Assembly: GCA_016186145.1 (NCBI GenBank)
Contig: JACPMF010000007.1
Span: 19,302-83,301 of the forward strand
DNA from: Candidatus Sungiibacteriota bacterium
GTDB taxonomy: Bacteria; Patescibacteriota; Minisyncoccia; Sungbacterales; SURF-37
Reading direction: 5' to 3'
DNA: 64,000 bases
Shown here: piece after piece, positions 6,126 through 56,329 of the stretch
How the letters are laid out: each line of letters opens with the position of its first letter
How positions within the stretch are numbered: the first letter of the stretch is position 1
Notes under the pieces: model-generated
Seen by the model: the letters and a program-made list of their open reading frames with translations, nothing else
The model's database searches: none
What the model was told of the DNA's origin: nothing
Position numbers and translations under genes: made by a program

Positions 6126-6142
6126 ATCGCAGGCCAAGCCCT

Positions 6143-7411
6143 TTATATTTTTAACAACTTCTCCAGCTTCTCCCTCTCATACGCCGGCCCCAGAAGCGCT
6201 AGGTTCATTGTCTCCTCCTTTATTATATCACGAGCAACGCTCTGAATGTCTTCAACACTCACCGCATCGAGCTTTTTAAAAACCTCATCAATGGTCAGCG
6301 GCTTGCCGGTAAGAATCTCTTCGCCGCCGATAAAAGTGGCGAGGTTGGAAGAAGACTCCATGCCAATCAAGCTCGTTCCTTTTACGTAATCCCTCGCTTT
6401 CTTAAGCTCCTCTTCGGGAACCTTCAAATCGCGTATTTTCCTATACTCGCCGAGAATTGTTTCGATCGCTTTATCAAGCTTTTCTACGGGAACCCCGGCA
6501 TATGTCGCGAGGTAACCATAACGGCTATAATCGTCGAAACTCGTTGAAATATGATACGCGAGGCCAAGCTCTTCCCGTACTTCCAAAAACATGCGGGAGC
6601 TCATACCGCCGCCAAGAATCGTTGCAAGAAGGGACGCGGGCCATACACGCGGATCGTCCTTGCCGAAACCGCGAAAACCAAGAATAACGTGCATCTGATC
6701 CGTTTTCTTTTCCTCGTGAAAAAACGCGGGGGAAGATTGTCCTTCTTTGACTTTTGGCTGCGTCCTTGGCTCTCCGTCACGAAGGTCCCGGAAAGTCTCT
6801 TTTATTTTCTCAACCACCGCAGCCTCATTTTTAATGTTTCCGGCAACAATCACCGCAGTGTTTTTGGCAACGTACTGGCTATGAAAATAATCGACAAAAT
6901 CATCCCGCTTGAGAGATTTGATAACGGGTTCTTCGCCAAGCGTCTCCCACCCTGCCGGCTGATCTCCATATAACAACCTCTCCCAAAGGTAACCGGCCCG
7001 CTGGGGCGGATCGTCATGCCGCATGTGCATTTCTTCAATTATTACTCCCCGCTCGCGCTCTATCTCTTCTGCGGGGAGCGTTGAATTCAAAAATATGTCC
7101 GTCACTACATCAAAGGCCTGATCAAAATACTGGTAGCCGACTTTGGCAAAGTACCCCGTATATTCATTCGAGGTGAATGCGTTATACACCGCACCAAGGC
7201 CGTCGAGCTCAACCGCGATCTGAATTTTTGAAGGCCGTTTTACGGTGCCCTTGAAAAACATGTGCTCAAGAAAATGCGAGATGCCGTTGTTCTGCCGTGT
7301 CTCATGATTTGATCCGGTTCCCACAAAAATCAAAACCGTCACGGTGTTTGTCCCGCTCATTGAGGCCGTCAATATTCTCATCCCATTTGGAAGAACTTCT
7401 TTTTTGAACAT
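6143..7411 (-). CDS. M16-family zinc peptidase (insulinase/pitrilysin-like)
   Basis: HxxEH inverted zincin motif (HFLEHMFFKGT), about 420 aa, peptidase M16 architecture. Confidence 0.85.
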   Translation of the reverse strand: MFKKEVLPNGMRILTASMSGTNTVTVLIFVGTGSNHETRQNNGISHFLEHMFFKGTVKRPSKIQIAVELDGLGAVYNAFTSNEYTGYFAKVGYQYFDQAFDVVTDIFLNSTLPAEEIERERGVIIEEMHMRHDDPPQRAGYLWERLLYGDQPAGWETLGEEPVIKSLKRDDFVDYFHSQYVAKNTAVIVAGNIKNEAAVVEKIKETFRDLRDGEPRTQPKVKEGQSSPAFFHEEKKTDQMHVILGFRGFGKDDPRVWPASLLATILGGGMSSRMFLEVREELGLAYHISTSFDDYSRYGYLATYAGVPVEKLDKAIETILGEYRKIRDLKVPEEELKKARDYVKGTSLIGMESSSNLATFIGGEEILTGKPLTIDEVFKKLDAVSVEDIQSVARDIIKEETMNLALLGPAYEREKLEKLLKI

Positions 7412-41536: not shown

Positions 41537-42472
41537 TTACTCTCCCTTTTTCAACTCCTCGTCAGTAAGGTCATGGAACGAATCGGGGTGTTCAAGGTCG
41601 AATTTTGTCACATGCTGAAGATGATGCGGATCGAATCCCGCTTGACGGATTTCTTGGATCAGCGCGCGAAACTCCGCCCTGTCCTTAACTGCCGTTGCCC
41701 CGGCCCGGCGCGGAAGCTGGCGATCAAATACGATTTTTGATCCCCTCTTGACCTCTGCCCCGTTTCCCCGCCCATCGCTGTAAAACTGCGAGAGAACAAG
41801 GATGCGAGTGCCAACGTACACGGCCTCTTCAAGGTCGTGCGTGACAAAAAAAATCGTCATCTCGAACCGTTCCCAGAGTTCCAGCAAAAACACCTGAAGG
41901 TGTTCCCGCACTCCGGGGTCCAGCGCGCCAAACGGCTCGTCCATCAAAAGGATCTTCGGCTTCATGATCAGGGCTTGCGCCAGCGCTACCCGCTGCTGCA
42001 TGCCGCCGGAAAGCTCGTGAGGAAACTTATCTTTGTGTTCCGCAAGTTTGACTGCCTCGATGTAGAACATCGCTTCATCGTGAAATTCTCTACTCTTCCC
42101 AAGCGACCCCAGAATCCCATGCCCTAACCGCCTTCCAAAAACTACATTGTCAAACACCGTCAGAAACGGATAGAGCGAGTATTGCTGGTACACGATACCC
42201 CGGTCAACACTTGGGAAACCAACCGGCTTTCCACCGACCGAGACCTCGCCCGAAGTCGGGCGCTCTTCACCGAGAACCAATCGGAAAAGCGTTGACTTTC
42301 CGCACCCCGAGGGGCCGACCAAAGAACAAAGTTCTCCGCCGCGGACGGCGAGATCAACATTGTCAAGAACAACTTTCGGGCCATACGCCTTGTATACATC
42401 CTTGAGAAAAAGCACGCTCGCCCTTCGAAGCTCGTCGGCCGTTTTGATCATCCTCATCCCCCTATGACTCAC
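41537..42472 (-). CDS. ABC transporter ATP-binding protein (NitT/TauT family)
   Basis: Walker [10 protein letters not shown], signature LSGGMQQR, Walker [13 protein letters not shown]-loop, plus a roughly 60-aa C-terminal extension. Confidence 0.9.
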
Positions 42473-43334
42473 GAACCACGAAATACCAGGGATACTTCCA
42501 ACGCATATAAGTCCTTAACAGCCAATCTGCTGCAAAACCGAGAAATGTGATAAGCAAGACATACGGGATGATCACATCCATTGCCTGATAGCGGCGTACG
42601 AGATAAATGCGGTATCCCAGCCCCTCGCTTGCCGCAAACGCTTCGGCGGCAAGGAGAAAAAGCCATGCCGGCCCTAAAGAGAGCCGGACAGATTCGATCA
42701 GCCGAGGCATTACTTGCGGAAAAACAACCCTATACACAACACCAAGCGGCGATGCCCCAAGAGTTAACGCCTTCGTAATGTGTTCTTTCGGAAGTTTGCA
42801 TGCGGCAAGATGCACATCAAGCGACATCACCCACGCCGTGCCGATGAAAATCAAAACAACTTTCACCGTCTCGTGAACGCCGAATGCAACCAAAAGAATC
42901 GGGAGAATGGCAAGCGGCGGAACGATTGACAAAAATTTCGTAAACGGCAGAAGAAGCGCGCGAAACCCGGGGAAACATCCCTGATTCAACCCCAGGAAAA
43001 GAGCGCTAAGCGCGGCAAGCGCCATGCCCATGCCGAGGCGCCTCAAGCTTGAAAGAGTATCCTGAAGAAGAATGTAGTGCCCAGTGCGTAAATCTTCGGT
43101 TGCTACTAACTCCTTAACCGCTTCTGCCATTTTCATAACAGAGGGAAGATATTTATAGTCAGGATTCTCCTTAAGACGAATGTCAGATGCGATAAGATAA
43201 ACGCTTACCAAAACAGCAAACGGTACCAAAGCGAGAAACCAGTTCAAATACCTCCCTGGTCCGGCATGAAGCCCCCAAAAGCACGGGTTTCTCCTGCGGC
43301 GTTCCCAGAAATTCATTAGCTTTTCTCGCATCAA
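42462..43334 (-). CDS. ABC transporter permease (NitT/TauT family)
   Basis: 6-TM permease with the EAA-like loop (...ALTLGASPLGVVYRVVFPQVMP...). Confidence 0.85.
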   Translation of the reverse strand: MMREKLMNFWERRRRNPCFWGLHAGPGRYLNWFLALVPFAVLVSVYLIASDIRLKENPDYKYLPSVMKMAEAVKELVATEDLRTGHYILLQDTLSSLRRLGMGMALAALSALFLGLNQGCFPGFRALLLPFTKFLSIVPPLAILPILLVAFGVHETVKVVLIFIGTAWVMSLDVHLAACKLPKEHITKALTLGASPLGVVYRVVFPQVMPRLIESVRLSLGPAWLFLLAAEAFAASEGLGYRIYLVRRYQAMDVIIPYVLLITFLGFAADWLLRTYMRWKYPWYFVVRES

Positions 43335-43501
43335 TGCCTCCTGTTTTTCTTGTAAAGGTGCTTTTTCACTTTCGCGAGCATAACATAGAATTTAACAAGC
43401 GTCAAATTGACTTTAATAAACAGCTGTGGTACATATTACATATAGTTCCCTTTGTGTCGTGTCGGCGAAGGCGCAGACCCTAAAAACCCTGGAGGGTAGA
43501 C

Positions 43502-43759
43502 GTGAAAAGAGTTAACGTTACCGAAACCTTTGTTATCTTAATCGCCCTTGCGCTTGCTGGCTGCCACGGAGAAGAAGACTGGACAGGAGAAGTGCGGCTC
43601 ACCAACGGCACGACCCTTTCCTGTCCTGCAAGTGTTGACTTCAGCGGGGACCCAATTTCTTGTTATCAAAGCTCAACCACTGAAAATCATACGCCGATTA
43701 CCGTCCCTCGCAACCAGGTTTCTGAAATCCTTGTACGAAATAAAAAGACCTTGAAATAG
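43502..43759 (+). CDS. small lipoprotein (hypothetical)
   Basis: GTG start with GGAGGG RBS. Signal peptide with lipobox LAGC. 85 aa. Confidence 0.5.
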   Translation: MKRVNVTETFVILIALALAGCHGEEDWTGEVRLTNGTTLSCPASVDFSGDPISCYQSSTTENHTPITVPRNQVSEILVRNKKTLK

Positions 43760-43768
43760 ATCAGCCGC

Positions 43769-43795
43769 GGTCCTCCAAAAAAGGACCGTTTTTTT
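43769..43795 (+). terminator. rho-independent terminator
   Basis: GGTCCTCCAAAAAAGGACC hairpin followed by GTTTTTTTAT. Confidence 0.6.
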
Positions 43796-43847
43796 ATAAA
43801 AAAGCCCCGCTATCAAAGCGGAGCGTAATCGTATCTAAAGAACTTCT

Positions 43848-44915
43848 TTACAGCTTCCCTTCAGCGGCAAGCTGTACGTATGTTGAATTGAACCGAAGCT
43901 TCACATTCTTGGAGTTGCCCATGACCGAGCCGTCAGGGAACTGAATCCCGACATGATCAGGCGACTTCCCCTTGTAAAGCCCCTTCTTGTGGGAGAACGT
44001 GCGCACGAGATCCATCGTGCGCTTCAGTTCCGGGCTCTTGGTGAAAGCCGCGGCATCAGCCGCCCGATAAAACATGGCAGTAGTCGCAAGCTGCGCTTCG
44101 AACTCTGCCGGCGTCGCACCGGCCTGCTTGGCCATGAATTCCCGAGCCTTCTTCGCCTCGGGACCCCGACCGGACATCACCGCCATGGTTTCGTACCATG
44201 CCCCAACGAGCGCTCGCTTCACATTGTCAGGAGTATCAGTACGGACCACGAGCATGTCGATGATCTCGCCGGGAATCTTCGAAGAATCGAACACCATCTT
44301 CACCTTCGAATCGTTCCGCACCAGCATGAGGTGCGGGTTCCAGGTGACAATCGCCGCGTTCGGAGCGGAATCGTTTCGAAACGCAGCAACGATATCGGCC
44401 TCATCCGTATTCAGGAGAGTAACATCGCGCGGAGAAACACCGCCGCCGACAATCTCGAGCCCCCGGTAAAGGAGATACGTCGAGACAGAATCGTCGACGA
44501 TGTATGCCCGACGACCCTTCAGGTCGGCAAGCGTAGCGCCGTTACGAAGCACCACGCCGTCATTGCCATTTGAGAAGTCACCAACGATGAGAGCCGTCGA
44601 GTCGACGCCTCCAAGCGCAGGACCGATCAAAACGTCCATGTTTGTGATAGCGATGCCGCAGGCGTTCCCCGAAGCGTAACTGTCAATCGTTGCGCCATAG
44701 CTCGCGAAATGAAGTTCGACATTCGCCTTGTGCTTTTGGGCATGCTTCTTCAGTATGCCCGAAGCCTCCATATAGCCCCAAGGTTCCCAACCGGTATACC
44801 GTGACCATTCAACGCGGCACGGCTTCCCTTGAGCAGATACCCCCGAATTCATGAAAACCGCCGCAAGGAAAATCACGAGAATCACTCCGAGAGAAATCGC
44901 CGTCGTCTTCTTCAT
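43848..44915 (-). CDS. ABC transporter substrate-binding protein (NMT1/SsuA/TauA-like)
   Basis: Signal peptide MKKTTAISLGVILVIFLAAVFM. About 330-aa periplasmic-binding fold. Same cluster as the permease and ATPase. Confidence 0.7.
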   Translation of the reverse strand: MKKTTAISLGVILVIFLAAVFMNSGVSAQGKPCRVEWSRYTGWEPWGYMEASGILKKHAQKHKANVELHFASYGATIDSYASGNACGIAITNMDVLIGPALGGVDSTALIVGDFSNGNDGVVLRNGATLADLKGRRAYIVDDSVSTYLLYRGLEIVGGGVSPRDVTLLNTDEADIVAAFRNDSAPNAAIVTWNPHLMLVRNDSKVKMVFDSSKIPGEIIDMLVVRTDTPDNVKRALVGAWYETMAVMSGRGPEAKKAREFMAKQAGATPAEFEAQLATTAMFYRAADAAAFTKSPELKRTMDLVRTFSHKKGLYKGKSPDHVGIQFPDGSVMGNSKNVKLRFNSTYVQLAAEGKL

Positions 44916-44969
44916 CCCTGTTCCCTCCTTTTTGGGTTTGGGTGGTTTTTATATGTAAGCAATCAAAGA

Positions 44970-46211
44970 CTACTCAAGATCGATGTTAATCCGCGGCCGT
45001 GCAGCTTTCCCCTTCTCCATGTCTTGGATCGCGTGTTCTGCATCGGTAGTAAGCTGGTCAAGATCCTTAATGCTCTGCGCCATCTTCGGCAGAGACTCGA
45101 CGCGGAATCGCTGGATATCTTCAAGCGCTCCACGGATATCGGCAAACGCCGTCTTCATGACTTCAACCGGAATCATCTCGCCGGATGCAACCTTCTGAAT
45201 TTCAACGCCCTGCTTCCGAAGCCGTGCCGCAGTCCTCTTGATGAGTTCCGCGGTCGATTGGTTCACCGCAAGTAGCTTGTCGAGCTGCACCTGCTGATGG
45301 GCAAGGGCGATAGTCAGCGTCGTTGCCACCGTCAAACCGCTAATGGTCGAGGTGAGCGCAAGATCAATGCCGCGAATGAGTTCATGGTTCGTATCGACAA
45401 TCGTCTCATAAGCGATCACGCCCATCTGGTTGATACCGAGCTGCGTCTGAAGCGCCATCACTCGCTGACGAAGCGGGAACAAAAGCTCTTTCTGAATGAA
45501 AACGCGCTGCGAGTCGCTCTCGCCAAGCGTCCCGATCTTTGCTTCAAAATGCTTATCCATGAGCATGCCGACCTTGACGAGCTTTTGCAGCTTCAGAGTA
45601 AGCTCGCGCATTTCAATCTGATCCGCGCGAAGAATTTCGCAATCGCGCGCAAGCTGGCCTTTGCCGGTCCGGAGAGAACGCGCGATATCGTCGATGACCG
45701 TACGCGCCTCTTCAAACTGGATGAAATACGCCTTCACCCTGTCGCCAAGAACAGGAGTTCGGCCAAGCATCCGGCTAAACCATCCGCCCTCAAAATCCCA
45801 TTGGTTCGGATCGTGCTCTTCAACCTGGATCTTCAGGTCCGTCAGGACCTTAGCAACGTCGACAACGGCGTCTCCATCCTTCACGGTACGATCCAGCCTC
45901 GCCAAACGCTTGATCGGCTCGCGCAGCATCTCGGACTTGCGAGCAGAAGCGTTGACCACCTCAAGACCCATATTGTCTACCGCTTCCCGATTCGCGGCTT
46001 GCGCCTTGAAATCTTCCGCCTTGATACTCATCAGTTCAGTGGCATATTTCTCCGCAAGAGCAACGAGTTTCGGGTCTTCCTCGAGCCCGACATGAAGCTC
46101 CTTCGGGTCAACGAGACCGAGATCCTTCTTTAGCTGACTCTGATCCACGGCCTTTAGGGACTGAACGGACGGGTCTTCCGTAACAACGGTTTGCTGAACC
46201 TGTGCTGGCAC
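44970..46211 (-). CDS. TelA-like toxic anion resistance family protein
   Basis: 413 aa, highly helical/coiled-coil. Composition and length fit TelA/KlaB (pfam05816). I recognised it by pattern, without a profile search. Confidence 0.55.
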   Translation of the reverse strand: MPAQVQQTVVTEDPSVQSLKAVDQSQLKKDLGLVDPKELHVGLEEDPKLVALAEKYATELMSIKAEDFKAQAANREAVDNMGLEVVNASARKSEMLREPIKRLARLDRTVKDGDAVVDVAKVLTDLKIQVEEHDPNQWDFEGGWFSRMLGRTPVLGDRVKAYFIQFEEARTVIDDIARSLRTGKGQLARDCEILRADQIEMRELTLKLQKLVKVGMLMDKHFEAKIGTLGESDSQRVFIQKELLFPLRQRVMALQTQLGINQMGVIAYETIVDTNHELIRGIDLALTSTISGLTVATTLTIALAHQQVQLDKLLAVNQSTAELIKRTAARLRKQGVEIQKVASGEMIPVEVMKTAFADIRGALEDIQRFRVESLPKMAQSIKDLDQLTTDAEHAIQDMEKGKAARPRINIDLE

Positions 46212-46236
46212 GGCCTCCTCCTTCTTTTTCCTTTTT

Positions 46237-47157
46237 CTACTTTTTCACGCCGCTCTTTTCGTCATCAGCGTCTGCACGAATAAAAGAATCTCCGGTACTG
46301 CCTCGTGCGCGGCGGATAAGCGACTCCAGCTCTTCGCGCGCGGTCTCAACATCAAGGGTTGCCTCTCCACCCGTTCTCATCTGGGCAACCGCAAAGCGCG
46401 TTCGGTCAAGCTGTGTGAGCGCTTCTTCATTCCTCGTAAGGAGGACATTAATCTTCTCAAGCTGTTCCTCATGCACAAGCTTGCTTACCTTCAATGTTTC
46501 AACTTCTTCCTGATCGGCCTTTTGCAAAACCTTCATCCGCTCGAGTTTCTTCAAACGGTCGGTGATATACCTCATGTCGGTCGCATCAATGCTTTTCAGG
46601 AGATTCGCGATTTCGCGAAGATTGTCAAGAATCGCAAGATACAGCTGCTCGGCTGTTCCTAAGAAACGGCCGAACATCAGCTCTCCCTGGCTCAACTTAT
46701 CCGAAAGAATTTCGTGAAGGGCGTTAAACCCTCGCTCTGCAAGAGCAAACTGCTGAACACCTTGTTCCGCGTATTCGCTCCCAGCCCCTTCCGACTTGCT
46801 GAATGCGGCCAGTTCTCTCGTGAGCCGCTCCAGAACACCTTTCCGCTCGGCAATCATCTGCTCGCGGAGCTTCCGGATGTAATGGTTCGCAATCGAATCT
46901 TTCCTGAAGTAGTTAAACACCCAGCTGGAAAGACCGAGGCCGGTGCCACCCGCAGCGATGACGACAAACAAAAGCGACGGCTCAAGCACTGCCAAAGCCA
47001 ACGCGCCTATCAAACCGAGCGGAATCGTCACCATGGCAAAACCGTTCTCAAAAATCTTCTTCCGAACTGCCTTTGCTACCGACCCGCTTGAAAAATCGAC
47101 GGGTCCCGCCCGGGGCGCATCAACAGCTGGTATGTTTTTCTTCGCCACGCATATCAC
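46237..47157 (-). CDS. hypothetical membrane protein (2 TM plus coiled-coil; XpaC-like)
   Basis: 306 aa. Two N-terminal TM helices then a long coiled coil. The position directly upstream of telA resembles the xpaC-telA pairing in Firmicutes. Confidence 0.45.
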   Translation of the reverse strand: MICVAKKNIPAVDAPRAGPVDFSSGSVAKAVRKKIFENGFAMVTIPLGLIGALALAVLEPSLLFVVIAAGGTGLGLSSWVFNYFRKDSIANHYIRKLREQMIAERKGVLERLTRELAAFSKSEGAGSEYAEQGVQQFALAERGFNALHEILSDKLSQGELMFGRFLGTAEQLYLAILDNLREIANLLKSIDATDMRYITDRLKKLERMKVLQKADQEEVETLKVSKLVHEEQLEKINVLLTRNEEALTQLDRTRFAVAQMRTGGEATLDVETAREELESLIRRARGSTGDSFIRADADDEKSGVKK

Positions 47158-47166
47158 CCCCTTCTT

Positions 47167-48525
47167 TTAGTACGTCTCGGACATCAACAGCAGTTCCACG
47201 CGCGGGAGCCGATAACTGTACGCCCGGTCATTCGGTGACTCACCGGGCAGCAACGGCAGAGGCTCGTCAGAGCCCATACCAACCGCCTTAATCCGGTTCG
47301 TATCAATGGAGTAAGTTACCATAAGATACCGAGCAACGCTTTCTGCCCGTTCATGCGAGAGCTTCTTGTTCTCTGCCGGGTCTCCGGCAAGAGCAGTATG
47401 CCCTTTCACCAAGACGCGGAACTTCGGATAGTGACGAAGCTTTTCCACCGAGGCGTCAATCTTCTCTTTTTCCTGAAGATGAAGTTCGCCGCGGCCTGTT
47501 TGGAATACAACCGGCTCGATCTTCAAAGCGCCAACCGGCTTCAACGAAGCCCAGCCGGCATCGTTAAGCGGAGAAAACGCGGCTTTCAGAGAATCTTCGG
47601 AGGGAACGGGCGATTTCGCGCCGACGTCCATGAATCCGGACGCGCTTGAAAGAAGAAGGTCCTCGATGGGCTTCTTGTAGGTAAGGCGATACGGATCTTT
47701 GTCGGGAATCGGATTCGACGAAAAATCTTTGCTTGCGACGAGAATCTTTACCGTAGCTTCAATCGCCGTAATCAGTCCCGCGTCCGCTCCCCCTCCGACG
47801 CCAAACCATTTCTGGCCGTTATCGGTGAGCGACGCCCACTGGACGCCCTTCAGCATTGCTTTCACGGCGTCCGAAGAGAGTTTAGTCTCTTTCGCGACTT
47901 CCTGCTCAAGAAGAGCGGGGTTATCGCGATAATTCTTCAGCACCCGGAAATACGTCCCCAGTAAAAGGTTTATCGCCTCAGGATTGTTCGCCGCGAATTT
48001 CCGGCCAACCAAAAGAATGTCAACAATCAATCGCTCGGTATTCTCCGTGCCAAGAAGTTTAACCACGCCCTTTTGAGAAAGCGCCTTGGAAACGTCCGGC
48101 TCCCAGAGCACTGCGACTTCGACCTTGCGGCCGGAGAGCTTTTGCAACGCATCGGAAGATCCGTCGGTCTCAACCCGCCGCGCGCCGGTCACCAGAAGCT
48201 GCGGCACGTCAAAATGTTCTGCCGTTGCTTTTATCAAATGGTGGCTCGGAGAGTTCGGGGTAAATCCGACCTTGAAATCATTCCGCTTCTTGAGGGCCTC
48301 AAGATTCGACGCAACATCCTGCCACGCAAGAATGGCGTCACCGCCCTTTGATTCGTCGACAACGGCGATTATCGCGCCGGGAAACTTCCGGGGCGCGGCA
48401 TTCAGGATGTATGAATCGACCGTCGCCACCGCAAAATCAATCTCGCCCTTATCAAGACGTTCAACCCGCTTTGCATAGTCGGCCTTATCATCTTCGCACT
48501 GGAGCAACCATCCTGCGGAACGCAC
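47167..48525 (-). CDS. periplasmic binding (NMT1-like) domain fused to C-terminal OmpA-like domain; the N-terminal signal-peptide segment appears to sit in a different frame
   Basis: C-terminal ...RVLVKGHTALAGDPAENKKLSHERAESVARYL...GMGSDEPL is OmpA_C-like. The N-terminal part is similar to the SBP at 43848..44915. GTG start with a stop 6 codons upstream. Confidence 0.6.
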   Translation of the reverse strand: MRSAGWLLQCEDDKADYAKRVERLDKGEIDFAVATVDSYILNAAPRKFPGAIIAVVDESKGGDAILAWQDVASNLEALKKRNDFKVGFTPNSPSHHLIKATAEHFDVPQLLVTGARRVETDGSSDALQKLSGRKVEVAVLWEPDVSKALSQKGVVKLLGTENTERLIVDILLVGRKFAANNPEAINLLLGTYFRVLKNYRDNPALLEQEVAKETKLSSDAVKAMLKGVQWASLTDNGQKWFGVGGGADAGLITAIEATVKILVASKDFSSNPIPDKDPYRLTYKKPIEDLLLSSASGFMDVGAKSPVPSEDSLKAAFSPLNDAGWASLKPVGALKIEPVVFQTGRGELHLQEKEKIDASVEKLRHYPKFRVLVKGHTALAGDPAENKKLSHERAESVARYLMVTYSIDTNRIKAVGMGSDEPLPLLPGESPNDRAYSYRLPRVELLLMSETY

Positions 48526-48647
48526 TTCGTAGCACTTGCGTCACTCGTCGCCAGATGCTGGCGTTCCTGCCAGATCGGCTTTCCGAAACGAACCCCGACA
48601 ACGATCAAAACACCCAACACGAAAATCAGTATCGCAACCTTCCGCAT
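48402..48647 (-). pseudogene. signal-peptide ORF fragment (MRKVAILIFVLGVLIVVGV...) out of frame with the SBP-OmpA gene; likely frameshift or sequencing error
   Basis: 81-aa ORF with a canonical signal peptide, overlapping the 5' end of the 47167..48525 frame. The two frames are both open over about 48400..48540. Confidence 0.35.
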
Positions 48648-48755
48648 GTGCGAACCCCCTCATTCCTTATTTCCCTTATTAAATTGACAAAATTACTGCA
48701 TTAATCTGTAGCATAAACTCTACATTCTGTCAAGAAAAAAGAGGGCTTTGCCCTC

Positions 48756-49646
48756 TTACCTTTTTTCGCTTTTCAGCGCCTGCTTTGCAGCAAGCATATC
48801 GCGCATTTGCCCCTCGTCTAAAATCGGATAGTGCGGACTCAATTGCTTCAGACGAGCCGCAACAATTTCGGCAACCGTTGTGCGCGCGGACCACTTTTTG
48901 TCAGCCGGGATGACATACCACGGCGCGCGGGCTGTTGCCGTATTATTGATCGCGTCCTCGTATGCGCGCATGTATTCTTCCCAGTGTGCGCGCTCGCGGA
49001 TATCTCCCAAAGAAAATTTCCAATGCTTCTCCGGCCTTCTGATGCGCCGCAAGAAACGCTGTTTCTGTTCGGCTCGCGATATGTGCAGAAAGAACTTCAG
49101 AACCACAATACCGTTCCGAGTCAGATACTGTTCCCAGTTTCTGATGTCTTCGAAGCGCTGCTTCCAGATGTCCTCGCCGGAACATTCGCGAGGGAGGCGC
49201 TGCCTCAAGAGAAGTTCGGGGTGAACCCGTACCACAAGAACTTCTTCATAGTGCGAACGGTTGAAGACCCCGATTCGTCCCCGTTCAGGAAGGGCCCGCG
49301 CCGCGCGCCACAAAAAATCGTGATCAAGCTCCTCGTCGGAGGGCGCACGGAAGTTGGTCGTCTGAAAAGCGGTCGGTTTGATTCCGGAAAGCACATGTTT
49401 GATGACGCCGTCCTTCCCGGCCGTATCCATGCCCTGCAACACAAGCAAGACTCCATAGCTATTCTGCGCCCAAAGAATTTCCTGAAGCTTCCTTAACTGT
49501 TCAACTGCCTTTTCCAAACGTCCGAGCGCTTGCGGTTTATTTTGCAAAGAACCGGTCGAGGCCGAATTATAATCCTGAAGGCGAATCGGTCGTTCTCCCG
49601 TCACGATAAAATCTTCAAATTCCATTACAACGCCTCCGGTGTTCAA
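48756..49646 (-). CDS. ppk2: polyphosphate kinase 2 (PPK2)
   Basis: Walker A GMDTAGKDG, Walker B and lid motifs. About 296 aa, one-domain PPK2. Confidence 0.9.
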   Translation of the reverse strand: MNTGGVVMEFEDFIVTGERPIRLQDYNSASTGSLQNKPQALGRLEKAVEQLRKLQEILWAQNSYGVLLVLQGMDTAGKDGVIKHVLSGIKPTAFQTTNFRAPSDEELDHDFLWRAARALPERGRIGVFNRSHYEEVLVVRVHPELLLRQRLPRECSGEDIWKQRFEDIRNWEQYLTRNGIVVLKFFLHISRAEQKQRFLRRIRRPEKHWKFSLGDIRERAHWEEYMRAYEDAINNTATARAPWYVIPADKKWSARTTVAEIVAARLKQLSPHYPILDEGQMRDMLAAKQALKSEKR

Positions 49647-49745
49647 TTAAGTCGTGACGTTTCGCTTTATCGTAGATTACCTAAAAAACAAAATTTGTCA
49701 AGAAAAAAGAGGAGCGATGCTCCTCTTGGTGTTGTTATTTCTCGA

Positions 49746-50555
49746 CTACTGCTGCACAAACGCTTTCACGTCGAATACGGGTGATTCGGCAAGCACTGCT
49801 GCGAGCAGCGCCTCGCGAAGCGACTCCGGACTGCTTGCTTCCCGATAGTTGGTGCGCCCGACCTGGTTTAACGAATGCTTTAACCCAATACAGAATCCCG
49901 CGACGTCGACAACCACTGGCGATGTTGCAATAATTTCGTTAACGGCATCGGTAGGGTCGTAACCAAAATTTGCTTCTCCATCAGTCACGACAACAAGATG
50001 ATATTCGCCATAACCACGCTGGCGCCGCGCCTGAATCATAAGCTTTTCATACCCCGCCTTGATTGCGGTCGAAAGCGGCGTACCGCCATCGGCACGCAGA
50101 GCCCCAACCGCACCCTTGAACGCACGCCGGTGTTCCTGCCCGACGCCAAGCGGCACAAGCTCCTTAACGCCATGGTCGCTATTAAACACAAGTAGTCCGA
50201 GGTTCGCCCCGACGGGAACCTCTGCGGCAACCTCGCTCAAAACTCGCTTAGCGACATCTGCCTTTGGCTCTCTACTGTTGCATGCATTCTCTCTCATGCT
50301 CCCGGAGAAATCAGCAATGAAGTAATAATTATTGGCCAAAAGGTTTTCAACCAACAGAACCTCCTCACCCTTTGCGGGCGAAGGCGGCCAATTGGCTCGA
50401 ACGGCAAATCCGGGAATACTTTGCGCCGTGCCGTTGCTTTGAGAACCAGCGGCGTTCGTCGATCCCGACGATAAAGGAGCGCTGCCGTCACACGCACTAA
50501 GCGCGACGACGGAAAGAAGGGAAAGGCCGACCACGAAAATCGTTGGTCGCTTCAT
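49746..50555 (-). CDS. VWA-domain lipoprotein
   Basis: Lipobox LSAC. MIDAS DxSxS (ADFSGSM) and TDGEAN motifs of the von Willebrand A domain. Confidence 0.8.
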   Translation of the reverse strand: MKRPTIFVVGLSLLSVVALSACDGSAPLSSGSTNAAGSQSNGTAQSIPGFAVRANWPPSPAKGEEVLLVENLLANNYYFIADFSGSMRENACNSREPKADVAKRVLSEVAAEVPVGANLGLLVFNSDHGVKELVPLGVGQEHRRAFKGAVGALRADGGTPLSTAIKAGYEKLMIQARRQRGYGEYHLVVVTDGEANFGYDPTDAVNEIIATSPVVVDVAGFCIGLKHSLNQVGRTNYREASSPESLREALLAAVLAESPVFDVKAFVQQ

Positions 50556-50567
50556 AGCTTCCCCTCC

Positions 50568-52346
50568 TTACTGAAGCGGCTTGAAGACCGAGGCCTCGGC
50601 CTCGACCTGAATGATACGGAACTCAACCCGCATATTGTTTCTCCACTCCTGCTCGGTCTTCGGAGCGCACGGGTCAACCCCGCACATACCGGTCTTCGCC
50701 TTGACGATCCCGTGTCCGACCGTTGCAAACTGGCTCGGATCGAGACGCACGCTCTTGCCCTTCGCGTATGCAATGATGCTATCGCGAACGGCGTTCGCGC
50801 GCGTAAGACTCAAGTTTTTTGCCGCCTGCTCTACCTGCCGAAGGGCCGCTTCCGGAATACCCTGCTTCTTCTGCCGGAGGTACCCAAGCGGATCGCTATG
50901 GCCCTCGACGGTAATCACCGCTCCGCCGTAGGTAGAAACGAGTTCAACGACTTTCGCGAATGAGTCCCGATACAAGTCAGCAGGAAAAGCATTCTGATTC
51001 GGCTCGAAGTAGACTTCGAGAGAGAAAAGCTCGCCTTCGGCAAGCGTGCCCTGTTGCTGCTTCCTCGTAACAACCTTGGCAACCTCGCCAGTGTCGAACT
51101 TCGGCGCTTCAACTCCCTGAACATCGCGAAGACCCTGCGCAAGAACTTTGTAGTCCCAGCGAGCGTGATCAAGCGCGACGCGACCGGACAAAAGCCCGAG
51201 CGGAATAAAGGATGTCTGGATCTCGCCCGTCAGCTTATCGAGGTTCCTTGGATACGCCGGGTCCCCGAAAAACTTCACATTACCGCGGTACCCGACGAAC
51301 TCCGCATCTCCGTACATCCCCTCGGTATCGGCAACAGCGCTCGGACTGTCCATCAGAATGGTGGCGGCAGCTGAAATCATCTGCCGGTACTCGGCCTGAC
51401 GAGCAGTCTTGTTCTTCACCAGGTCACGAAGCATCTCTTCAGCGCGCATGAGAGCGCGGGTGAACTTCTGAACTTCGGCGCGATGCGCCTGCAGATAGTC
51501 AACACGCACCGCATAGACGTCCGCGATGACGCGGTTTGCCGTCTTTGTGGAAAGCATGATGCGCGCGCCCTTTACCGAATCCTCTGCGCCGCTCCCGGTG
51601 TTTCCGCCGGAAGTAAGCGCCAGGGCGTCAGGAATAATAACGAGCGCGGCATGCACCGACGGATCAGTGCGAAGAGCCGCGGCCGGCGTATTGTCATTGC
51701 CGGTAAGATCCTTCGTCCATTTAATGTTCACATCCTTAATGGAAAGCCCTGCGTCAGCAAGGATCTTCGCCAGATAATCAACATGCGGCCCGTATGCCTG
51801 AACGGCGATGGTCTTCCCGCGAAGTTCCTTCGGCGTCTTGATTCCGGACTTTACTACGAGAGCATCTCCGCCGTTCGACCACGTAAGTTGATAAACGACA
51901 ACCGGCTTGGTTTTCGGATCGCGAGAAGCGGCCCCGATGCACATATTGATCATTCCCAGCGTTCCGCGAAGGTATGGCGTCTCGCCGCGAATATACATTT
52001 CACACTGCTTCCTGAAATCATCTTCACGGAAAAGAACAAAATTCAAGCCCTCCTGGTCGAAAAAGCTTCCTCGCTGCGTACTCTTCTGATTGCCGTTTGC
52101 ATAAACCGTTGCGATATCGCCCCCCCACGTGATCAGAGGAACCTTAACCGAACCTGAACCGACATCGCCCGCCTTTGCAGTCACGACCTGGCTCAAGGGC
52201 GGCGATTGAATGTACTGCGGGACCGCTTCGCTAACCCCAGAAGAGACGACAACAAGTAGAACAGCAACGAACAGCGTGCTCATTCTTCGCATCTCGTGGT
52301 CCTCCTTTTCTCCGTTTTTGTTTTTCTTGTGTTTCTTGGAATCCAT
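50568..52346 (-). CDS. periplasmic binding (NMT1-like) domain fused to C-terminal OmpA-like domain (paralogue of 47167..48525)
   Basis: Signal peptide MRRMSTLFVAVLLVVVSSGVSEA. C-terminal ...ITVEGHSDPLGYL...LSLTRANAVRDSI... is OmpA_C-like. 592 aa. Confidence 0.7.
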   Translation of the reverse strand: MDSKKHKKNKNGEKEDHEMRRMSTLFVAVLLVVVSSGVSEAVPQYIQSPPLSQVVTAKAGDVGSGSVKVPLITWGGDIATVYANGNQKSTQRGSFFDQEGLNFVLFREDDFRKQCEMYIRGETPYLRGTLGMINMCIGAASRDPKTKPVVVYQLTWSNGGDALVVKSGIKTPKELRGKTIAVQAYGPHVDYLAKILADAGLSIKDVNIKWTKDLTGNDNTPAAALRTDPSVHAALVIIPDALALTSGGNTGSGAEDSVKGARIMLSTKTANRVIADVYAVRVDYLQAHRAEVQKFTRALMRAEEMLRDLVKNKTARQAEYRQMISAAATILMDSPSAVADTEGMYGDAEFVGYRGNVKFFGDPAYPRNLDKLTGEIQTSFIPLGLLSGRVALDHARWDYKVLAQGLRDVQGVEAPKFDTGEVAKVVTRKQQQGTLAEGELFSLEVYFEPNQNAFPADLYRDSFAKVVELVSTYGGAVITVEGHSDPLGYLRQKKQGIPEAALRQVEQAAKNLSLTRANAVRDSIIAYAKGKSVRLDPSQFATVGHGIVKAKTGMCGVDPCAPKTEQEWRNNMRVEFRIIQVEAEASVFKPLQ

Positions 52347-52520
52347 TATCGGCCAAAAGTTCTCTATCCACCTCCTTTTTGGCTTCCTCTAAAAAAGAAA
52401 AATGTTAATGTACACAATATACACTAGTACACTATTTTTAACTATTTGTAAAGGGCTCGGTGGACAATAAAATATTTTAATGTTATAATTTTTAAGCTCG
52501 TTGCCAAACAGAAAACGCAC

Positions 52521-53585
52521 TTGGACCAGGAGGATTCCGTGTTTGATGAAAACACCGTCGCCAGGCAGATTGCCAGCGGGCATAAGACCGGCCGCAAAAC
52601 ATTCGCATTTGACGAAAACCACGATCCGACAGAACCGATTACGATGTGGTTCCAGGATACAGGAGAAGGGTTGGGCTTGTTCGTAATTTTCTATACGCAA
52701 GCGTGCCGCTGGTCTCGATGCCTCGGCTGCAACCTTCCATCACTCTGCTCCCAATTCCCGGTCGGTTTCAAAAATGTCTTGACGCAGGTCGACCGCGTTT
52801 TTGCAAACCCCGCGGTCCAAAAGAGGCGCAGTGAAATCCGCCGGCTTATCGTGAGCAATAATGGTTCGGTGCTCGACCAAATCACATTCCCTTCAACCGC
52901 CTTAATGCATCTGGTGCTCCAAGCGCAACTGAATTTCTCCAATCTTTCCGTCCTGTGCCTTGAAACGCGCGCCGAGTATGTCGAACCGGCGGAACTGGAG
53001 TTTCTTGCGCGCGCAATCAAAGAGGGCGAGACCCCGACGGAACTTGAGCTCGCGATCGGTTTTGAGGCATTTGACGACAAGATCCGAAATAATCTGATGA
53101 AAAAAGGGCTGACGAAGAAAGTTTTCGAAGAGCTCATCGGCGATATGGCCGAACACCGCTTTCGCCTCAAGTGCTATCTGATGCAAAAGCCGATGCCAGG
53201 CATGACGGACGAAGAAGGAATCCGCGATATTCAGAATGCCATCGCCTACTTCGGAACCCTCTCCGCAGCACACGGCGGCAAAGACGCAGGACCCCGCGTG
53301 CAAATCAACGTACACTTGAACCCGACGTATGTCGCTAAGGGGACGATCTTGGAAAAAGCATTTTTGGAGGGCGGCTATACACCGCCGAACCTGCGCGATG
53401 TCGCCCGCGCGGCGCTCTTTGCAGAAAATCTTCCGCTGACCGTTTTCATTGGATTAAACGACGAGGGGCTGGCTGTCCCTGGCGGGTCGTTCATTCGTGA
53501 AGGCGATGACCCGCTTGTTGAGCGGCTTGAAAAATTCAACCAGCGGCAGGACTACAACATTCTTCATTCATTTGTCTCGTTATAA
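52521..53585 (+). CDS. radical SAM-like Fe-S enzyme with atypical CX4CX2C motif
   Basis: CRWSRCLGC cluster at about residue 63. Later ...IGFEAFDDKIRNNLMKKGLT... resembles the radical SAM TIM-barrel core. 354 aa. Confidence 0.45.
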   Translation: MDQEDSVFDENTVARQIASGHKTGRKTFAFDENHDPTEPITMWFQDTGEGLGLFVIFYTQACRWSRCLGCNLPSLCSQFPVGFKNVLTQVDRVFANPAVQKRRSEIRRLIVSNNGSVLDQITFPSTALMHLVLQAQLNFSNLSVLCLETRAEYVEPAELEFLARAIKEGETPTELELAIGFEAFDDKIRNNLMKKGLTKKVFEELIGDMAEHRFRLKCYLMQKPMPGMTDEEGIRDIQNAIAYFGTLSAAHGGKDAGPRVQINVHLNPTYVAKGTILEKAFLEGGYTPPNLRDVARAALFAENLPLTVFIGLNDEGLAVPGGSFIREGDDPLVERLEKFNQRQDYNILHSFVSL

Positions 53586-53711
53586 AGACAGGCAGCTTCC
53601 CCGGAAAGGAAGCTTTTTACTTATTATTGGGAAACAAGCAATTGACATTTTATAGAAAACATAGTAAAGTCATTTAAATGTTTCGGTACCTTAAAAACCC
53701 GAGGTGAAGCC

Positions 53712-55298
53712 ATGGCCGATGACATAGAAGGCCGCTGGGGGTCTGATAACTTCCTTGACGCGCTTGGGTTGTCGCACCTCAAATCAGTTCTCGGGCGCAG
53801 GCGAGGGCAAGCTTCCGAAATGAATCCTGCAACATCGAGGGGCTACGAAGAAGCGCTCGAAGCGGCAAGAAAAAAAATCCGCGAGCAGGGAATAGAGCTG
53901 CAACGGCTCTCTTCGCACCCATTCGACTACGCAACAGTTATCACCGTAAACCCGGGAGAACTGTCGGCAGTTATTATCCATGAAGGACGCGTACGCGAAG
54001 TAGCTTTACCAACCGGCAAAAACATTTTGCCCGGTGACACGGTTAAAATTTCAAGCGCCACAATGCAAATCATCGCCCAGGCCGCGCAGATTCCCGCCGG
54101 TAATGTGGGAATTTTACGGCGCGTGGGAACCGAGGCAAGTGAAATCGATTATCAGGGTGTCACCAAAGTTGTTCTCAATGGAAAATGCGCCGGCTCTCTT
54201 GAGACCGGCGACCGAGTACGACTCGACCAGCACGGATTCGTCATCACCGCAAAACTCGAAAGAGAAGAAGAGCGCTACCGCTTTTCCGAGGAAACCCACG
54301 TGCAGTGGAGCGACATCGGCGGATGCGACGACGCAAAAGAACTGCTTATCGAGGCAATCGAGCTTCCTCACGAGTTCCCGGAGCTTTTCAGCGCATACAA
54401 CAAGAAGCCCCCGAAAGGAATTCTTCTCTACGGGCCTCCGGGTTGCGGAAAAACAATGCTTGCCAAAGCGGCCGCAACGGCGCTTGCCGAAACCCACCGG
54501 AAGAAAGACGGCCCGGCCGGGAATATTCCTTCCGGATTCTTCTTTATCAAGGGGCCTGAACTTCTTGATAAATACGTGGGTGCCACCGAAGCAAAAATAA
54601 GAGAGGTGTTCGACCTCGCGCGCCGGCATGAAGCAAAGTACGGCTACCAGCCGGTTATCTTTTTTGACGAAGCCGACGCGCTTCTTTCAAAGCGCGGCTC
54701 CGGCATAAGCTCGGATATGGAACGAACCATCGTACCGATGTTCCTTTCCGAAATGGACGGCTTGCAAAAAGCCGGCGCCATCGTGCTTCTTGCGACGAAC
54801 CGGCCTGACGTTCTGGATCCCGCGGTCATCCGGGAGGGACGGATCGACCGAAAAGTGAAAATCCCGAGGCCAACCAAAGAAGTCTCGGTTGTCATCTTCG
54901 AACTGCATCTGAAAGGCGTGCCGTTTGCGAACAAAGACATCACGCACGAACTCGTCTCGCAATTCGCCGCAGACGCGCTCTTCTCCGACGAACGAGTGCT
55001 CTACGACCTTCTGCTCAATCCGGCGGACCAAGAGAAAAAAGCCGTTTTCGCGCTTCGCGAGCTGGTAAACGGCGCAATGATTAAAGGAGCCGTCGACAAG
55101 GCAACTTCTATTGCGCTCAACCGCGACAGAAAAGCCGGCAACAAGACGGCAACGGGCATTACGAAAGAAGATATTACAGCCGCTATTGATTCCGCATTCC
55201 GTGAAAACTTCGACATGAACCACGACGACGAACTTGAAGAATTCCGGCGCGAGCATGGCGGAGGAATCCCGCTGAAACGCGTGCAAGCGCGCGTGTAA
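53712..55298 (+). CDS. ARC/Mpa-like AAA+ ATPase (coiled-coil, tandem OB-fold interdomain, AAA module)
   Basis: Walker A GPPGCGKT. ...FFFIKGPELLDKYVGATEAKIREVF...IFFDEADALLSKRGSGISSDMERTIVPMFLSEMDG... closely matches the proteasome-associated ATPase (ARC/Mpa) family. No C-terminal GQYL. Confidence 0.7.
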   Translation: MADDIEGRWGSDNFLDALGLSHLKSVLGRRRGQASEMNPATSRGYEEALEAARKKIREQGIELQRLSSHPFDYATVITVNPGELSAVIIHEGRVREVALPTGKNILPGDTVKISSATMQIIAQAAQIPAGNVGILRRVGTEASEIDYQGVTKVVLNGKCAGSLETGDRVRLDQHGFVITAKLEREEERYRFSEETHVQWSDIGGCDDAKELLIEAIELPHEFPELFSAYNKKPPKGILLYGPPGCGKTMLAKAAATALAETHRKKDGPAGNIPSGFFFIKGPELLDKYVGATEAKIREVFDLARRHEAKYGYQPVIFFDEADALLSKRGSGISSDMERTIVPMFLSEMDGLQKAGAIVLLATNRPDVLDPAVIREGRIDRKVKIPRPTKEVSVVIFELHLKGVPFANKDITHELVSQFAADALFSDERVLYDLLLNPADQEKKAVFALRELVNGAMIKGAVDKATSIALNRDRKAGNKTATGITKEDITAAIDSAFRENFDMNHDDELEEFRREHGGGIPLKRVQARV

Positions 55299-55348
55299 AC
55301 CAAAAAATCAAAAACCTCATCGTACTGATGAGGTGTTTTCTTTTTGTG

Positions 55349-56329
55349 CTACTCCTTTACGTCGATGTCGAACCCGAAAATACTTCGCTTGCCGTATGTC
55401 GGAGGCGTTTTTGGGTCATCTTGAACCGACGTCACGTCATGCCAAAGAGGAGAATTGCGATCTTGCTGGAAAAGCCCTTGCCCGGGCTGTAAACATGCCC
55501 GCAGGTATTCTGTTTTTTTATCAGGCCCGTACACAATGCTCTCACCGCCAATAACTCCGTCGCGTTCAACGACCAAGGCGGAAATGATATAGTCCGCACC
55601 GTCCTGGTGAATGCCTTCAGGCGCATTCGTACCTTCGCCATCGGCGTCTGCAAAAATGCTTACCTGGTGAACTGCGGCCGAAAGCGTCTTAACTGCAGGT
55701 CGCACTTCCCGAATCATTTCCGCAACGCATCCGAGAAGGTGCTGGAAGTCAGGGTGGCCCGTAACCATTTCCGAAATCTCCTTAAAAGCGCGGGTGAAAG
55801 ACCGCGCGTCGCCGCTCTCCACATTTTGAGAAAAACTGTCTGCCGGACGCCGCGTAATTCTCCAACCCGCCGGCATAGACGGCTCGCGGTCGAAAAGAAG
55901 CCTGGCGATAGCGCGCTTTCTCCGCGGACGAATGCGCTCCAAAACCCACCGCTCTCCTTGTGAAAGCCGAACAATGAGATCGCCGACGTCCTCTAGCCCT
56001 TTTCTACCGGCATAATATTCGGGAAGAAGCGCATCGAGTCGGGACTTCTCATGGAAGAAGCGCTGTGTGAGATACGCCACCTGATCTCTTTTTACATCAT
56101 ACTCATCCCATGACAACAAGCTGAATGTTGGAGCGAGTTCACTGATGAACCGCTCCCGGTTAACCCCCAGACCTCCCAGATCAAACATGCGCACGGGATG
56201 TCCAATGGGGCTGCCCAATTTCGCCGAAAGAGCCGCCTCGTCAGCAAGATAACCGAAAAAGGGCTTTGTCATTGCTGTCCTCCGCTTTGAAAGAACACCA
56301 CAAACGATTTGCCCATTACTATACAACAA
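55349..56329 (-). CDS. hypothetical protein, possible 2OG-Fe dioxygenase-like (PF10014-like)
   Basis: ...APEGIHQDGADYIISALVVERDGVIGGESIVYGP... resembles the 2OG-Fe_Oxy_2 core. 326 aa. Confidence 0.4.
   Translation of the reverse strand: MLYSNGQIVCGVLSKRRTAMTKPFFGYLADEAALSAKLGSPIGHPVRMFDLGGLGVNRERFISELAPTFSLLSWDEYDVKRDQVAYLTQRFFHEKSRLDALLPEYYAGRKGLEDVGDLIVRLSQGERWVLERIRPRRKRAIARLLFDREPSMPAGWRITRRPADSFSQNVESGDARSFTRAFKEISEMVTGHPDFQHLLGCVAEMIREVRPAVKTLSAAVHQVSIFADADGEGTNAPEGIHQDGADYIISALVVERDGVIGGESIVYGPDKKTEYLRACLQPGQGLFQQDRNSPLWHDVTSVQDDPKTPPTYGKRSIFGFDIDVKE

Follow-up and report, generated by a model that had tools for sequence, protein, structure and literature searches.

An ARC/Mpa-like AAA+ ATPase Linked to a TelA/ABC Envelope Module in Patescibacteria: A Candidate Proteasome-Independent Unfoldase

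Introduction

Research on ATPases of the ARC/Mpa family has dealt almost exclusively with their part as entry gate of the actinobacterial proteasome, and it may be asked what such a motor serves when its gene has no proteasome or Pup gene for company. This question is raised by a stretch of 64,000 nucleotides (64 kb; hereafter the window) from Candidatus Sungiibacteriota bacterium (Patescibacteriota; GenBank assembly GCA_016186145.1, contig JACPMF010000007.1, positions 19,302 to 83,301), in which an AAA+ ATPase of 528 amino acids (aa) is encoded at 53712..55298 on the plus strand, downstream of a radical S-adenosylmethionine (radical-SAM) gene and convergent with a 2-oxoglutarate (2OG)-Fe(II) dioxygenase gene. 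A preliminary description of this DNA had taken the ATPase for an ARC/Mpa-like unfoldase that might be coupled to its two neighbours, and the three open reading frames (ORFs) were found exactly where it had placed them. The reading that we favour is that the ATPase is a proteasome-independent unfoldase or disassemblase of the ARC/Mpa lineage serving an envelope module of TelA, an ABC importer and peptidoglycan-binding proteins. Taken as a whole, this reading has in our judgement about an even chance of being right; independence from a proteasome is very probable, and a functional tie to the module is moderately favoured.

Results

Architecture and Family Assignment of the ATPase

The AlphaFold2 (AF2) model of the ATPase, built from 80 relatives, has a predicted local distance difference test score (pLDDT) of 89.4 and consists of a helix, two beta domains, an AAA module and a C-terminal lid with a beta hairpin. 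Along the gene, a short N-terminal motif conserved among the closest relatives (aa 11-25, SDNFLDALGLSHLKS; consensus DDFLDxLGLSHLKP; 53742..53786) is followed by a coiled-coil helix in the AF2 secondary structure (aa 39-67; 53826..53912), two OB-like beta domains that align with the Mpa interdomain and are covered by TIGR03689 from model position 21 (aa 72-123 and 132-182; 53925..54257), the AAA module as placed by Pfam and motif positions (54294..54971), and the lid with the C-terminal helices (54972..55298). A single AAA domain was detected (PF00004, aa 237-385, 122 bits). Among NCBIfam models, the best match was TIGR03689 pup_AAA with 323.7 bits (aa 46-516 against positions 21-499 of 512), followed by PAN (186 bits), Cdc48 (181) and FtsH (152); a Parcubacteria relative (locus L102) scored 262 bits against TIGR03689. 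When the model was compared with the PDB by Foldseek, M. tuberculosis Mpa accounted for every one of the 30 best matches (about 485 aligned columns; E 4e-34 to 4e-28), and Rpt subunits ranked after them (about 1e-24). The coiled coil, two OB domains and AAA module recognized in the preliminary description are confirmed.

The catalytic motifs are intact, including Walker A (GPPGCGKT, aa 241-248), the pore loop (KYVG, 287-290), Walker B (FFDEAD, 317-322), sensor-1 (ATNR, 361) and the arginine fingers (REGRIDR, 374), and among the 80 relatives the residues of catalysis and of the pore loop vary little or not at all. The AAA motif blocks regarded earlier as diagnostic were also recovered (e.g., the ARC-type GSGISSD at aa 329). 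With Mpa/ARC, the protein shares the coiled coil, tandem OB domains, a single classic AAA module, the C-terminal lid, the GSGISSD...VPMFLSEMDG block and an aromatic-hydrophobic-Gly pore loop. It differs from Mpa/ARC in its shorter coiled coil (about 29 residues), the additional DDFLDxLGLSHLKP motif, and the lack of a GQYL/GxYx tail, as its C-terminus reads ...LKRVQARV, in agreement with the preliminary description. The GxYx tail is the contact with the 20S core in Mpa, and the roles of both this tail and the coiled coil have been described in the same study (PMC6466877). It also falls short of the equivalog cut-off of TIGR03689 (504.75 bits), belongs to a separate clade, lacks dop-pup-prcBA-pafA neighbours and lies inside an envelope module. 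The ATPase is a genuine relative of mycobacterial Mpa, with a motor that works like that of Mpa and a substrate-entry apparatus laid out in the same way. Because score, docking tail and locus context all fail the Mpa equivalog, it should be called ARC-like rather than Mpa. Although PAN and Rpt subunits have the same coiled coil-OB-AAA layout and provide the second-best fold matches, they have a single OB domain and an HbYX tail and match the window ATPase only from aa 158.

Search for Pup-Proteasome Genes

Custom hidden Markov models (HMMs) for Dop, Pup, PrcB, PrcA and PafA were built from canonical ARC loci of GTDB genomes, which served as positive controls. In 75 canonical loci among the matches listed, partner genes sought within 10 kb of ARC were recovered for Dop in 68, Pup in 62, PrcB in 55, PrcA in 53 and PafA in 68. 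The same models gave no match at E<=10 across the 64-kb window, which upholds, within this range, the earlier statement that no 20S, pup, pafA or dop gene is near the ATPase. Similarly, no match at E<=10 was obtained in sixteen related loci (L001-L016) of the type found in the candidate phyla radiation (CPR), except for a marginal Pup match in L013 (E 0.085), and no Pup-proteasome genes were found in the viral loci of ATPase relatives. Pfam scans of 39 ORFs of the window revealed only the envelope module and housekeeping genes, such as those for aminoacyl-tRNA synthetases, PolA, UvrB, RuvAB, a Mur ligase, PFOR and PilB.

The closest functional analogy is provided by C. glutamicum, which has no proteasome and yet possesses a pupylation machinery whose ARC acts on ferritin (PMC8223512). 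In both cases an ARC-type unfoldase occurs without a 20S core, and the corynebacterial one is thought to disassemble ferritin rather than to degrade it (PMC8223512); however, C. glutamicum keeps Pup, PafA and Dop beside arc, whereas no ligase, deamidase or Pup is visible in the window. Literature searches on the CPR proteasome, pupylation and UBact found nothing relevant. Pup-like "UBact" systems reportedly occur in a few candidate phyla.

A Separate Clade with Two Subfamilies

The 120 best database clusters (90% identity) shared 41-77% identity with the window ATPase, and the named members came from Sungbacteria, Kerfeldbacteria and Paceibacterota, in addition to entries with the generic JGI label "proteasome-associated ATPase". 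Canonical ARCs were 32-37% identical to it over aa 48-516. A crude neighbour-joining tree without bootstraps placed the clade as sister to, and separate from, canonical ARC. The clade comprises ARC-like ATPases whose named sources are Patescibacteria/CPR metagenome-assembled genomes (MAGs), the others being metagenome and viral contigs. Among the 120 clade members a terminal GQYL never occurs and a penultimate Tyr in only six, the usual tail being ...RLRQATA, and ARC in 62 of the 75 canonical loci ends in G[QHTP][YF][LV] (GQYL or a close variant). With the N-terminal 199 residues as query, a search of 1.84 billion cluster representatives returned only 164 relatives at E<=1e-3.

Two subfamilies were distinguished. 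Subfamily A, which includes the window ATPase, has about 515-540 aa and carries the N-terminal DDFLDxLGLSHLKP motif (conserved in P0001-P0008, P0049, P0078, P0361, P0362 and P0372). Subfamily B proteins, known from Patescibacteria/CPR MAGs, other metagenome contigs and huge-phage contigs, mostly have a longer and different N-terminus, some of them being shorter (P0072 has 484 aa), and occupy mobile or phage-like contexts unlike that of the window. They belong to the same clade as the window ATPase, with 45-54% identity, a tail of the type ...RLRQxxx and no proteasome genes, and differ from it in their longer N-terminus, in the small Pup-like ORF that comes next, and in their mobile or phage-like arrays.

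With regard to distribution, approximately 17 full-length relatives were found on viral contigs. A scan of GTDB genomes with the single ATPase protein returned no relatives; an alignment-based scan yielded mostly canonical actinobacterial ARC loci among the matches listed, together with canonical loci from Poribacteria, Rokubacteria, Methylomirabilales, Acidobacteria and others. A metagenome scan with a C-terminal alignment gave four loci only, and in the INPHARED phage collection the matches were confined to the AAA module, with no full-length relative. The view that ARC homologues are rare outside Actinobacteria and Nitrospirae is not supported, given the CPR clusters, the viral relatives and the canonical loci of Poribacteria, Rokubacteria and other groups. 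Two individual cases may be mentioned. An ARC-like ATPase on a contig of a DPANN archaeon (L016, Nanoarchaeota MAG, 4971-6596; 35% identity, tail ...QEVK) clusters with canonical ARC in the neighbour-joining tree, and one viral-contig ATPase (L116) retains the canonical tail ...GGQYL.

Linkage of the ATPase to an Envelope Module

In every subfamily-A member with sufficient contig, the ATPase gene lies beside the same gene set, which encodes an ABC ATPase, a permease, an NMT1/SsuA-like binding protein, TelA, a two-transmembrane (2-TM) coiled-coil protein, a membrane-anchored fusion of a solute-binding protein (SBP) domain with OmpA_C (SBP-OmpA2), a vWA lipoprotein and a secreted SBP-OmpA_C fusion (SBP-OmpA1). 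The lineages with subfamily A and the full module are the window, L001, L002-4/L092, L008-10/L093-94, L095 and L102. Adjacency of ATPase and module was observed in six full and two partial CPR lineages with at least four gene orders, and the ATPases of the linked lineages are only about 43-58% identical. The ATPase gene is placed between those for OmpA2 and the vWA protein in the majority of loci, upstream of the PPK2 and SBP-OmpA1 genes in L102, and downstream of the radical-SAM gene in the window. The genes that flank the island differ from lineage to lineage and are unrelated. Linkage was also seen for more distant ATPases. In L014, which has part of the module (coiled-coil protein, TelA, binding protein, permease and ABC ATPase), the gene of a B-like ATPase starts 22 bp past that of the ABC ATPase in the same orientation, and in L015, where the ATPase does not belong to subfamily A, it lies 2 kb from genes for an ABC ATPase, a permease and an SBP-OmpA protein. 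The constant neighbour is the TelA/ABC/SBP-OmpA/vWA module, which the preliminary description did not mention, and the radical-SAM and 2OG genes are not constant.

In the window, all module genes are on the minus strand. The ABC importer of the nitrate/sulfonate/taurine type occupies 41537..44915 (ATPase 41537-42472, permease 42462-43334, binding protein 43848-44915) and is followed by TelA (PF05816, cytoplasmic; 44970..46211), the 2-TM protein with a long cytoplasmic coiled coil and no family match (46237..47157), a disrupted SBP-OmpA2 gene (47167..48647), the polyphosphate kinase PPK2 (48756..49646), the vWA-domain lipoprotein with the lipobox LSAC (49746..50555), and SBP-OmpA1, a secreted protein that joins an NMT1/SsuA-like binding domain to a peptidoglycan-binding OmpA_C domain (50568..52346). 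A sequence search of the PDB with TelA and the 2-TM coiled-coil protein found nothing significant. In the disrupted gene, the membrane anchor (MRKVAILIFVLGVLIVVGVRFGKPIW...TSDA) is out of frame with the main ORF, and about 26 codons kept in homologues (GKIKIAFDNWxGYxPLCSxEMKK) are missing, so that it represents either a pseudogene or an assembly error.

The twelve genes of 41537-56329 have a mean G+C content (GC) of 0.538 compared with 0.483 in the flanks (per gene, 0.50-0.56 and 0.45-0.52), and the change is abrupt at both edges, which are marked by TsaE and by an unannotated 374-aa ORF. Because all twelve genes share the raised GC with sharp edges, they may be regarded as one acquired island, consistent with joint horizontal acquisition of the whole module and the ATPase, radical-SAM, PPK2 and 2OG genes.

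Among accessory genes of the CPR islands, the radical-SAM gene occurs in three lineages, PPK2 in three and the 2OG gene in two. An extra secreted SBP_bac_11-vWA fusion is present in some islands (L095:3991-5949, minus strand; L102:18072-18916, plus strand), and that of L102 also has a HAD-type hydrolase (YjjG-like). The accessory enzymes (PPK2, the RaSEA-like radical-SAM enzyme, the 2OG dioxygenase and the HAD hydrolase of L102), taken with the NMT1/ThiY-like binding proteins, might indicate that a small molecule resembling a nucleobase is taken up or processed. Outside the island, a weak second tRNA match (Rfam, 35.5 bits; 826-885, plus strand), not called by ARAGORN, was noticed right after tRNA-Lys(CTT) at 738-812.

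The Module beyond CPR

Protein searches detected the SBP-OmpA fusion with 60-70% identity in Desulfobacterota, Myxococcota, Beta- and Gammaproteobacteria and other groups, and with 44-46% identity on Vibrio plasmids. A Desulfobacteraceae MAG (L098) has a co-directional array in the order vWA, OmpA2, 2-TM protein, TelA, binding protein, permease, ABC ATPase and radical-SAM enzyme. Two large Vibrio plasmids, V. penaeicida pIFO15640 (L103, 10982-19766) and V. alfacsensis pSEA2 (L184), carry eight core genes, namely those for the ABC ATPase, SBP-OmpA, vWA protein, SBP-OmpA2, 2-TM coiled-coil protein, TelA, binding protein and permease. A 506-aa hypothetical gene divergent from the Vibrio module was considered as a possible AAA gene and set aside, since it has no Pfam match and nothing marks it as such. 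In a Sinimarinibacterium MAG (L101, 8389-9861, minus strand), another classic AAA protein of 490 aa is encoded divergently upstream of the module. It was rejected as ARC-like, with 26% identity in the AAA core only and an unrelated N-domain, and this single case could be a non-orthologous replacement or a coincidence.

Neighbouring Radical-SAM and Dioxygenase Genes and Transcription Signals

The gene upstream of the ATPase (52521..53585, plus strand, 354 aa) encodes a RaSEA-like radical-SAM enzyme and is a recurrent accessory of the module. Its AF2 model (pLDDT 93.2) shows the partial TIM barrel of radical-SAM enzymes, with a cluster motif of three Cys close to the N-terminus, and the best Foldseek matches are Elp3, MgmA, PFL-AE and MoaA, so that the fold suspected earlier is confirmed. 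The protein matches TIGR01210 (E 1.2e-29) with 103.5 bits, below the 212-bit equivalog cut-off; its identification as archaeal RaSEA was therefore rejected and it is considered a bacterial paralogue. The unusual CX4CX2C spacing (canonical CX3CX2C) is a family trait, as CRWSRCxxC is present in 119 of 120 homologues.

The convergent gene (55349..56329, minus strand) encodes a 2OG-Fe(II) dioxygenase of the BsmA/IDO type, as had been supposed, with 92.2 bits against PF10014 2OG-Fe_Oxy_2 (cut-off 23.1) and an iron-binding triad supplied by the HxD motif (HQD, aa 241-243) together with a distal His within LWHDV (aa 297). It is a sporadic accessory, also found in L002/L003.

Consensus matches to transcription and translation signals surround the ATPase gene. 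These are a terminator-like hairpin 3' of the radical-SAM gene (53594..53614, plus strand), a promoter-like site TTGACA-17-TAAAGT (53642..53670, plus strand), the ribosome-binding site GAGGTG (53702-53707, plus strand), and a bidirectional terminator-like hairpin where the ATPase and 2OG genes converge (55314..55334). This arrangement suggests that the ATPase gene is transcribed on its own.

Small ORFs Adjacent to Subfamily-B ATPases

In all six non-redundant subfamily-B loci (L014 being B-like) from genome and metagenome searches, a 55-98-aa ORF lies directly 3' of the ATPase gene (L005:9746-9925, L006:9705-9893, L011:9471-9671, L012:5619-5885, L013:11342-11533 and L014:6722-6889). Most viral-contig loci likewise have a small ORF after the ATPase (L104:5509-5721, L106:5462-5716, L107:5782-6075, L110:3569-3838, L113:4954-5250, L115:5759-5980 and L117:5703-5900). 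The encoded proteins have a basic Gly-rich N-terminus and then an acidic helix (e.g., IDDVLAEVDKAL and LIDEIDELL) that resembles the Mpa-binding helix of Pup (DDLLDEIDGVLE). Where Pup has GGQ/GGE, their C-termini are nearly all Cys-rich (CRC, CTCW, CGCW or CTCCC); that of L014 ends in ...APEEE. Matches to the canonical Pup HMM were marginal (L013, E 0.085; L107, 0.021; L110, 0.023), and no PafA, Dop or 20S gene was found near these loci. The small protein may be a ligase-free Pup analogue or an adaptor.

When a Pup-like ORF was sought with two HMMs in the window and the other subfamily-A loci, only noise was obtained. The window ATPase has no such ORF, but it has a similar short motif at its own N-terminus. 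The subfamily-A motif resembles the Pup helix DDLLDEID, a likeness not significant by HMM (E 15-22), and that of P0003 (SIDDLLDEIGMPHLKP) has DDLLDEI in common with Pup, again without significance; because of these E-values, the likeness is taken as a lead only. The N-terminal peptide of subfamily A might be a cis version of the small-protein helix. By extension, the CPR/huge-phage clade would be a proteasome- and ligase-free counterpart of the Pup system, in which subfamily B would use the small protein as a tag or adaptor with its CxC end, and subfamily A would carry the helix on its own N-terminus, the motor remodelling or extracting parts of the TelA/ABC module. This scheme is speculative, and we regard it as doubtful.

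Discussion

Proposed Role of the ATPase

If the ATPase serves the envelope module without a proteasome, it would, by homology, form a hexamer that would bind a protein partner by means of its coiled coils and double-OB ring and thread it with its KYVG pore loops at the expense of ATP. The partner would most likely be unfolded, extracted or disassembled and not passed on to a proteasome, because the GxYx tail is absent and no 20S, Pup, PafA or Dop genes are nearby. The ATPase would then belong, as a cytoplasmic accessory, to an envelope module that is transferred horizontally, with the radical-SAM enzyme, PPK2 and 2OG dioxygenase as optional add-ons. The likeliest clients would be cytoplasmic or membrane-proximal parts of the module, such as TelA, the coiled-coil membrane protein or the transporter. 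Among these, TelA and the coiled-coil protein are the best candidates because they are cytoplasmic or accessible, and to name one of these two as the client is a tentative guess.

Two known types of gene arrangement bear comparison with the locus. AAA+/vWA pairs (MoxR-vWA, BatA-E and the Mg-chelatase ChlI/ChlD) also combine an ATPase with a neighbouring vWA gene in an envelope-associated operon; however, their AAA+ proteins are of the MoxR or ChlI type and not classic-clade ARC, and direct contact between ATPase and vWA protein is unlikely here because the vWA protein of the window is a secreted lipoprotein. The TelA/Ter stress-response gene neighbourhoods, reportedly surveyed by Anantharaman, Iyer and Aravind in 2012, are said to combine TelA with a membrane protein, a vWA protein and enzymes suggesting nucleoside-like metabolite chemistry, as the module does. 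In contrast to them, the window module has no TerB, TerC, TerD or TerZ, and its core consists of an ABC importer and SBP-OmpA fusions. To our knowledge, no ARC-like ATPase has been described in TelA/Ter systems.

Several points weigh against a role in the module. The modules of Vibrio pSEA2 and of pIFO15640-type plasmids have no AAA gene (and no radical-SAM gene), so the ATPase is not essential to the module and is a lineage-specific add-on to it. The extracytoplasmic parts of the module are beyond the reach of a cytoplasmic ATPase, and the ATPase gene looks monocistronic. The linkage could mean co-transfer on one island rather than shared function. As to the proteasome, the 64 kb viewed belong to a 133.6-kb contig that is itself part of a MAG, and Pup-proteasome genes could lie elsewhere. 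In addition, literature searches on the TelA/vWA/OmpA/ABC module found no publication.

Alternative Explanations

The alternative that survives best is that the ATPase hitch-hikes on the mobile island of the module and works in the cytoplasm as a general unfoldase or chaperone, or else as the motor of a peptidase, other than the proteasome, whose gene lies elsewhere. Such an origin of the linkage would agree with the plasmid modules devoid of an AAA gene, with the promoter-like and terminator-like signals of the ATPase gene itself, and with the unrelated mobile or phage-like contexts of the sister subfamily B. However, the adjacency has been kept in eight divergent lineages through at least four rearrangements and at different chromosomal sites, the ATPase of L014 is co-directional with the module at a distance of 22 bp, and no locus has a conserved peptidase neighbour. 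We consider this reading possible and somewhat unlikely.

Coupling of the ATPase to the adjacent radical-SAM and 2OG enzymes in protein modification or quality control, as envisaged in the preliminary description, was not sustained and appears improbable. The radical-SAM gene indeed precedes that of the ATPase by 126 bp in the same orientation, the 2OG gene converges on it, both recur inside the island in L002-4, and the radical-SAM gene adjoins the ATPase region in L095. However, a predicted terminator and promoter separate the radical-SAM gene from that of the ATPase, and in related lineages the radical-SAM gene is found elsewhere in the island or not at all: in L002-4 it lies apart from the ATPase gene, around the ATPase of L008-10 and L102 there is none, and it was not seen in L001, whose contig ends just past the binding-protein gene of the module. 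The 2OG gene is present in only two of the six subfamily-A lineages, and the relatives of its product with solved structures are BsmA-type enzymes (E 5e-7); PF10014 includes small-molecule hydroxylases. The radical-SAM family is 55-59% identical across many phyla and occurs in varied contexts, beside the module in three CPR lineages and the Desulfobacteraceae MAG, with ABC genes as its sole company in a spirochaete, and amid unrelated genes in two other genomes. Because it is widespread, conserved and next to the module in Desulfobacteraceae too, the enzyme is better viewed as a module accessory than as a specific partner of the ATPase.

It is also conceivable that the ATPase is a domesticated gene of a mobile element or phage that acts in conflict, either in anti-phage defence or in counter-defence. 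Phage resistance has been associated with TelA and Ter genes. Close relatives of the ATPase are found in phage-like arrays, next to restriction-modification and recombinase genes, and on viral contigs of up to 532 kb, and the island is atypical in GC and its module plasmid-borne in Vibrio. On the other hand, PADLOC recognized no defence system in the window, with only generic AAA matches for the ATPase (IetA and TRIP13) and none for the module proteins, and the neighbour-joining tree, which has no bootstrap support, shows the cluster-embedded forms as basal and the mobile forms as derived. There is, in our estimate, little probability of such a role.

Finally, an ordinary Pup-proteasome system with its other genes elsewhere would suit the full-length homology to Mpa/ARC, the partial view of the genome and the UBact systems reported from a few candidate phyla, and is nevertheless extremely improbable given a clade apart from canonical ARC that lacks the GxYx tail throughout, a sub-cut-off TIGR03689 score, and partner genes that lie within 10 kb of ARC in 53-68 of the 75 canonical loci and are found neither within 10 kb in the CPR-type loci nor anywhere in the 64 kb here.

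Significance

That ultra-small CPR bacteria and huge phages possess a sister clade of considerable size, without docking tail, proteasome or Pup ligase, points to a wider and probably proteasome-independent life of the coiled-coil/double-OB unfoldase. Its linkage to the TelA/ABC module offers a handle on two questions at once: what ARC-type motors do without a proteasome, and what role is played by a conserved module that is also borne by Vibrio plasmids.

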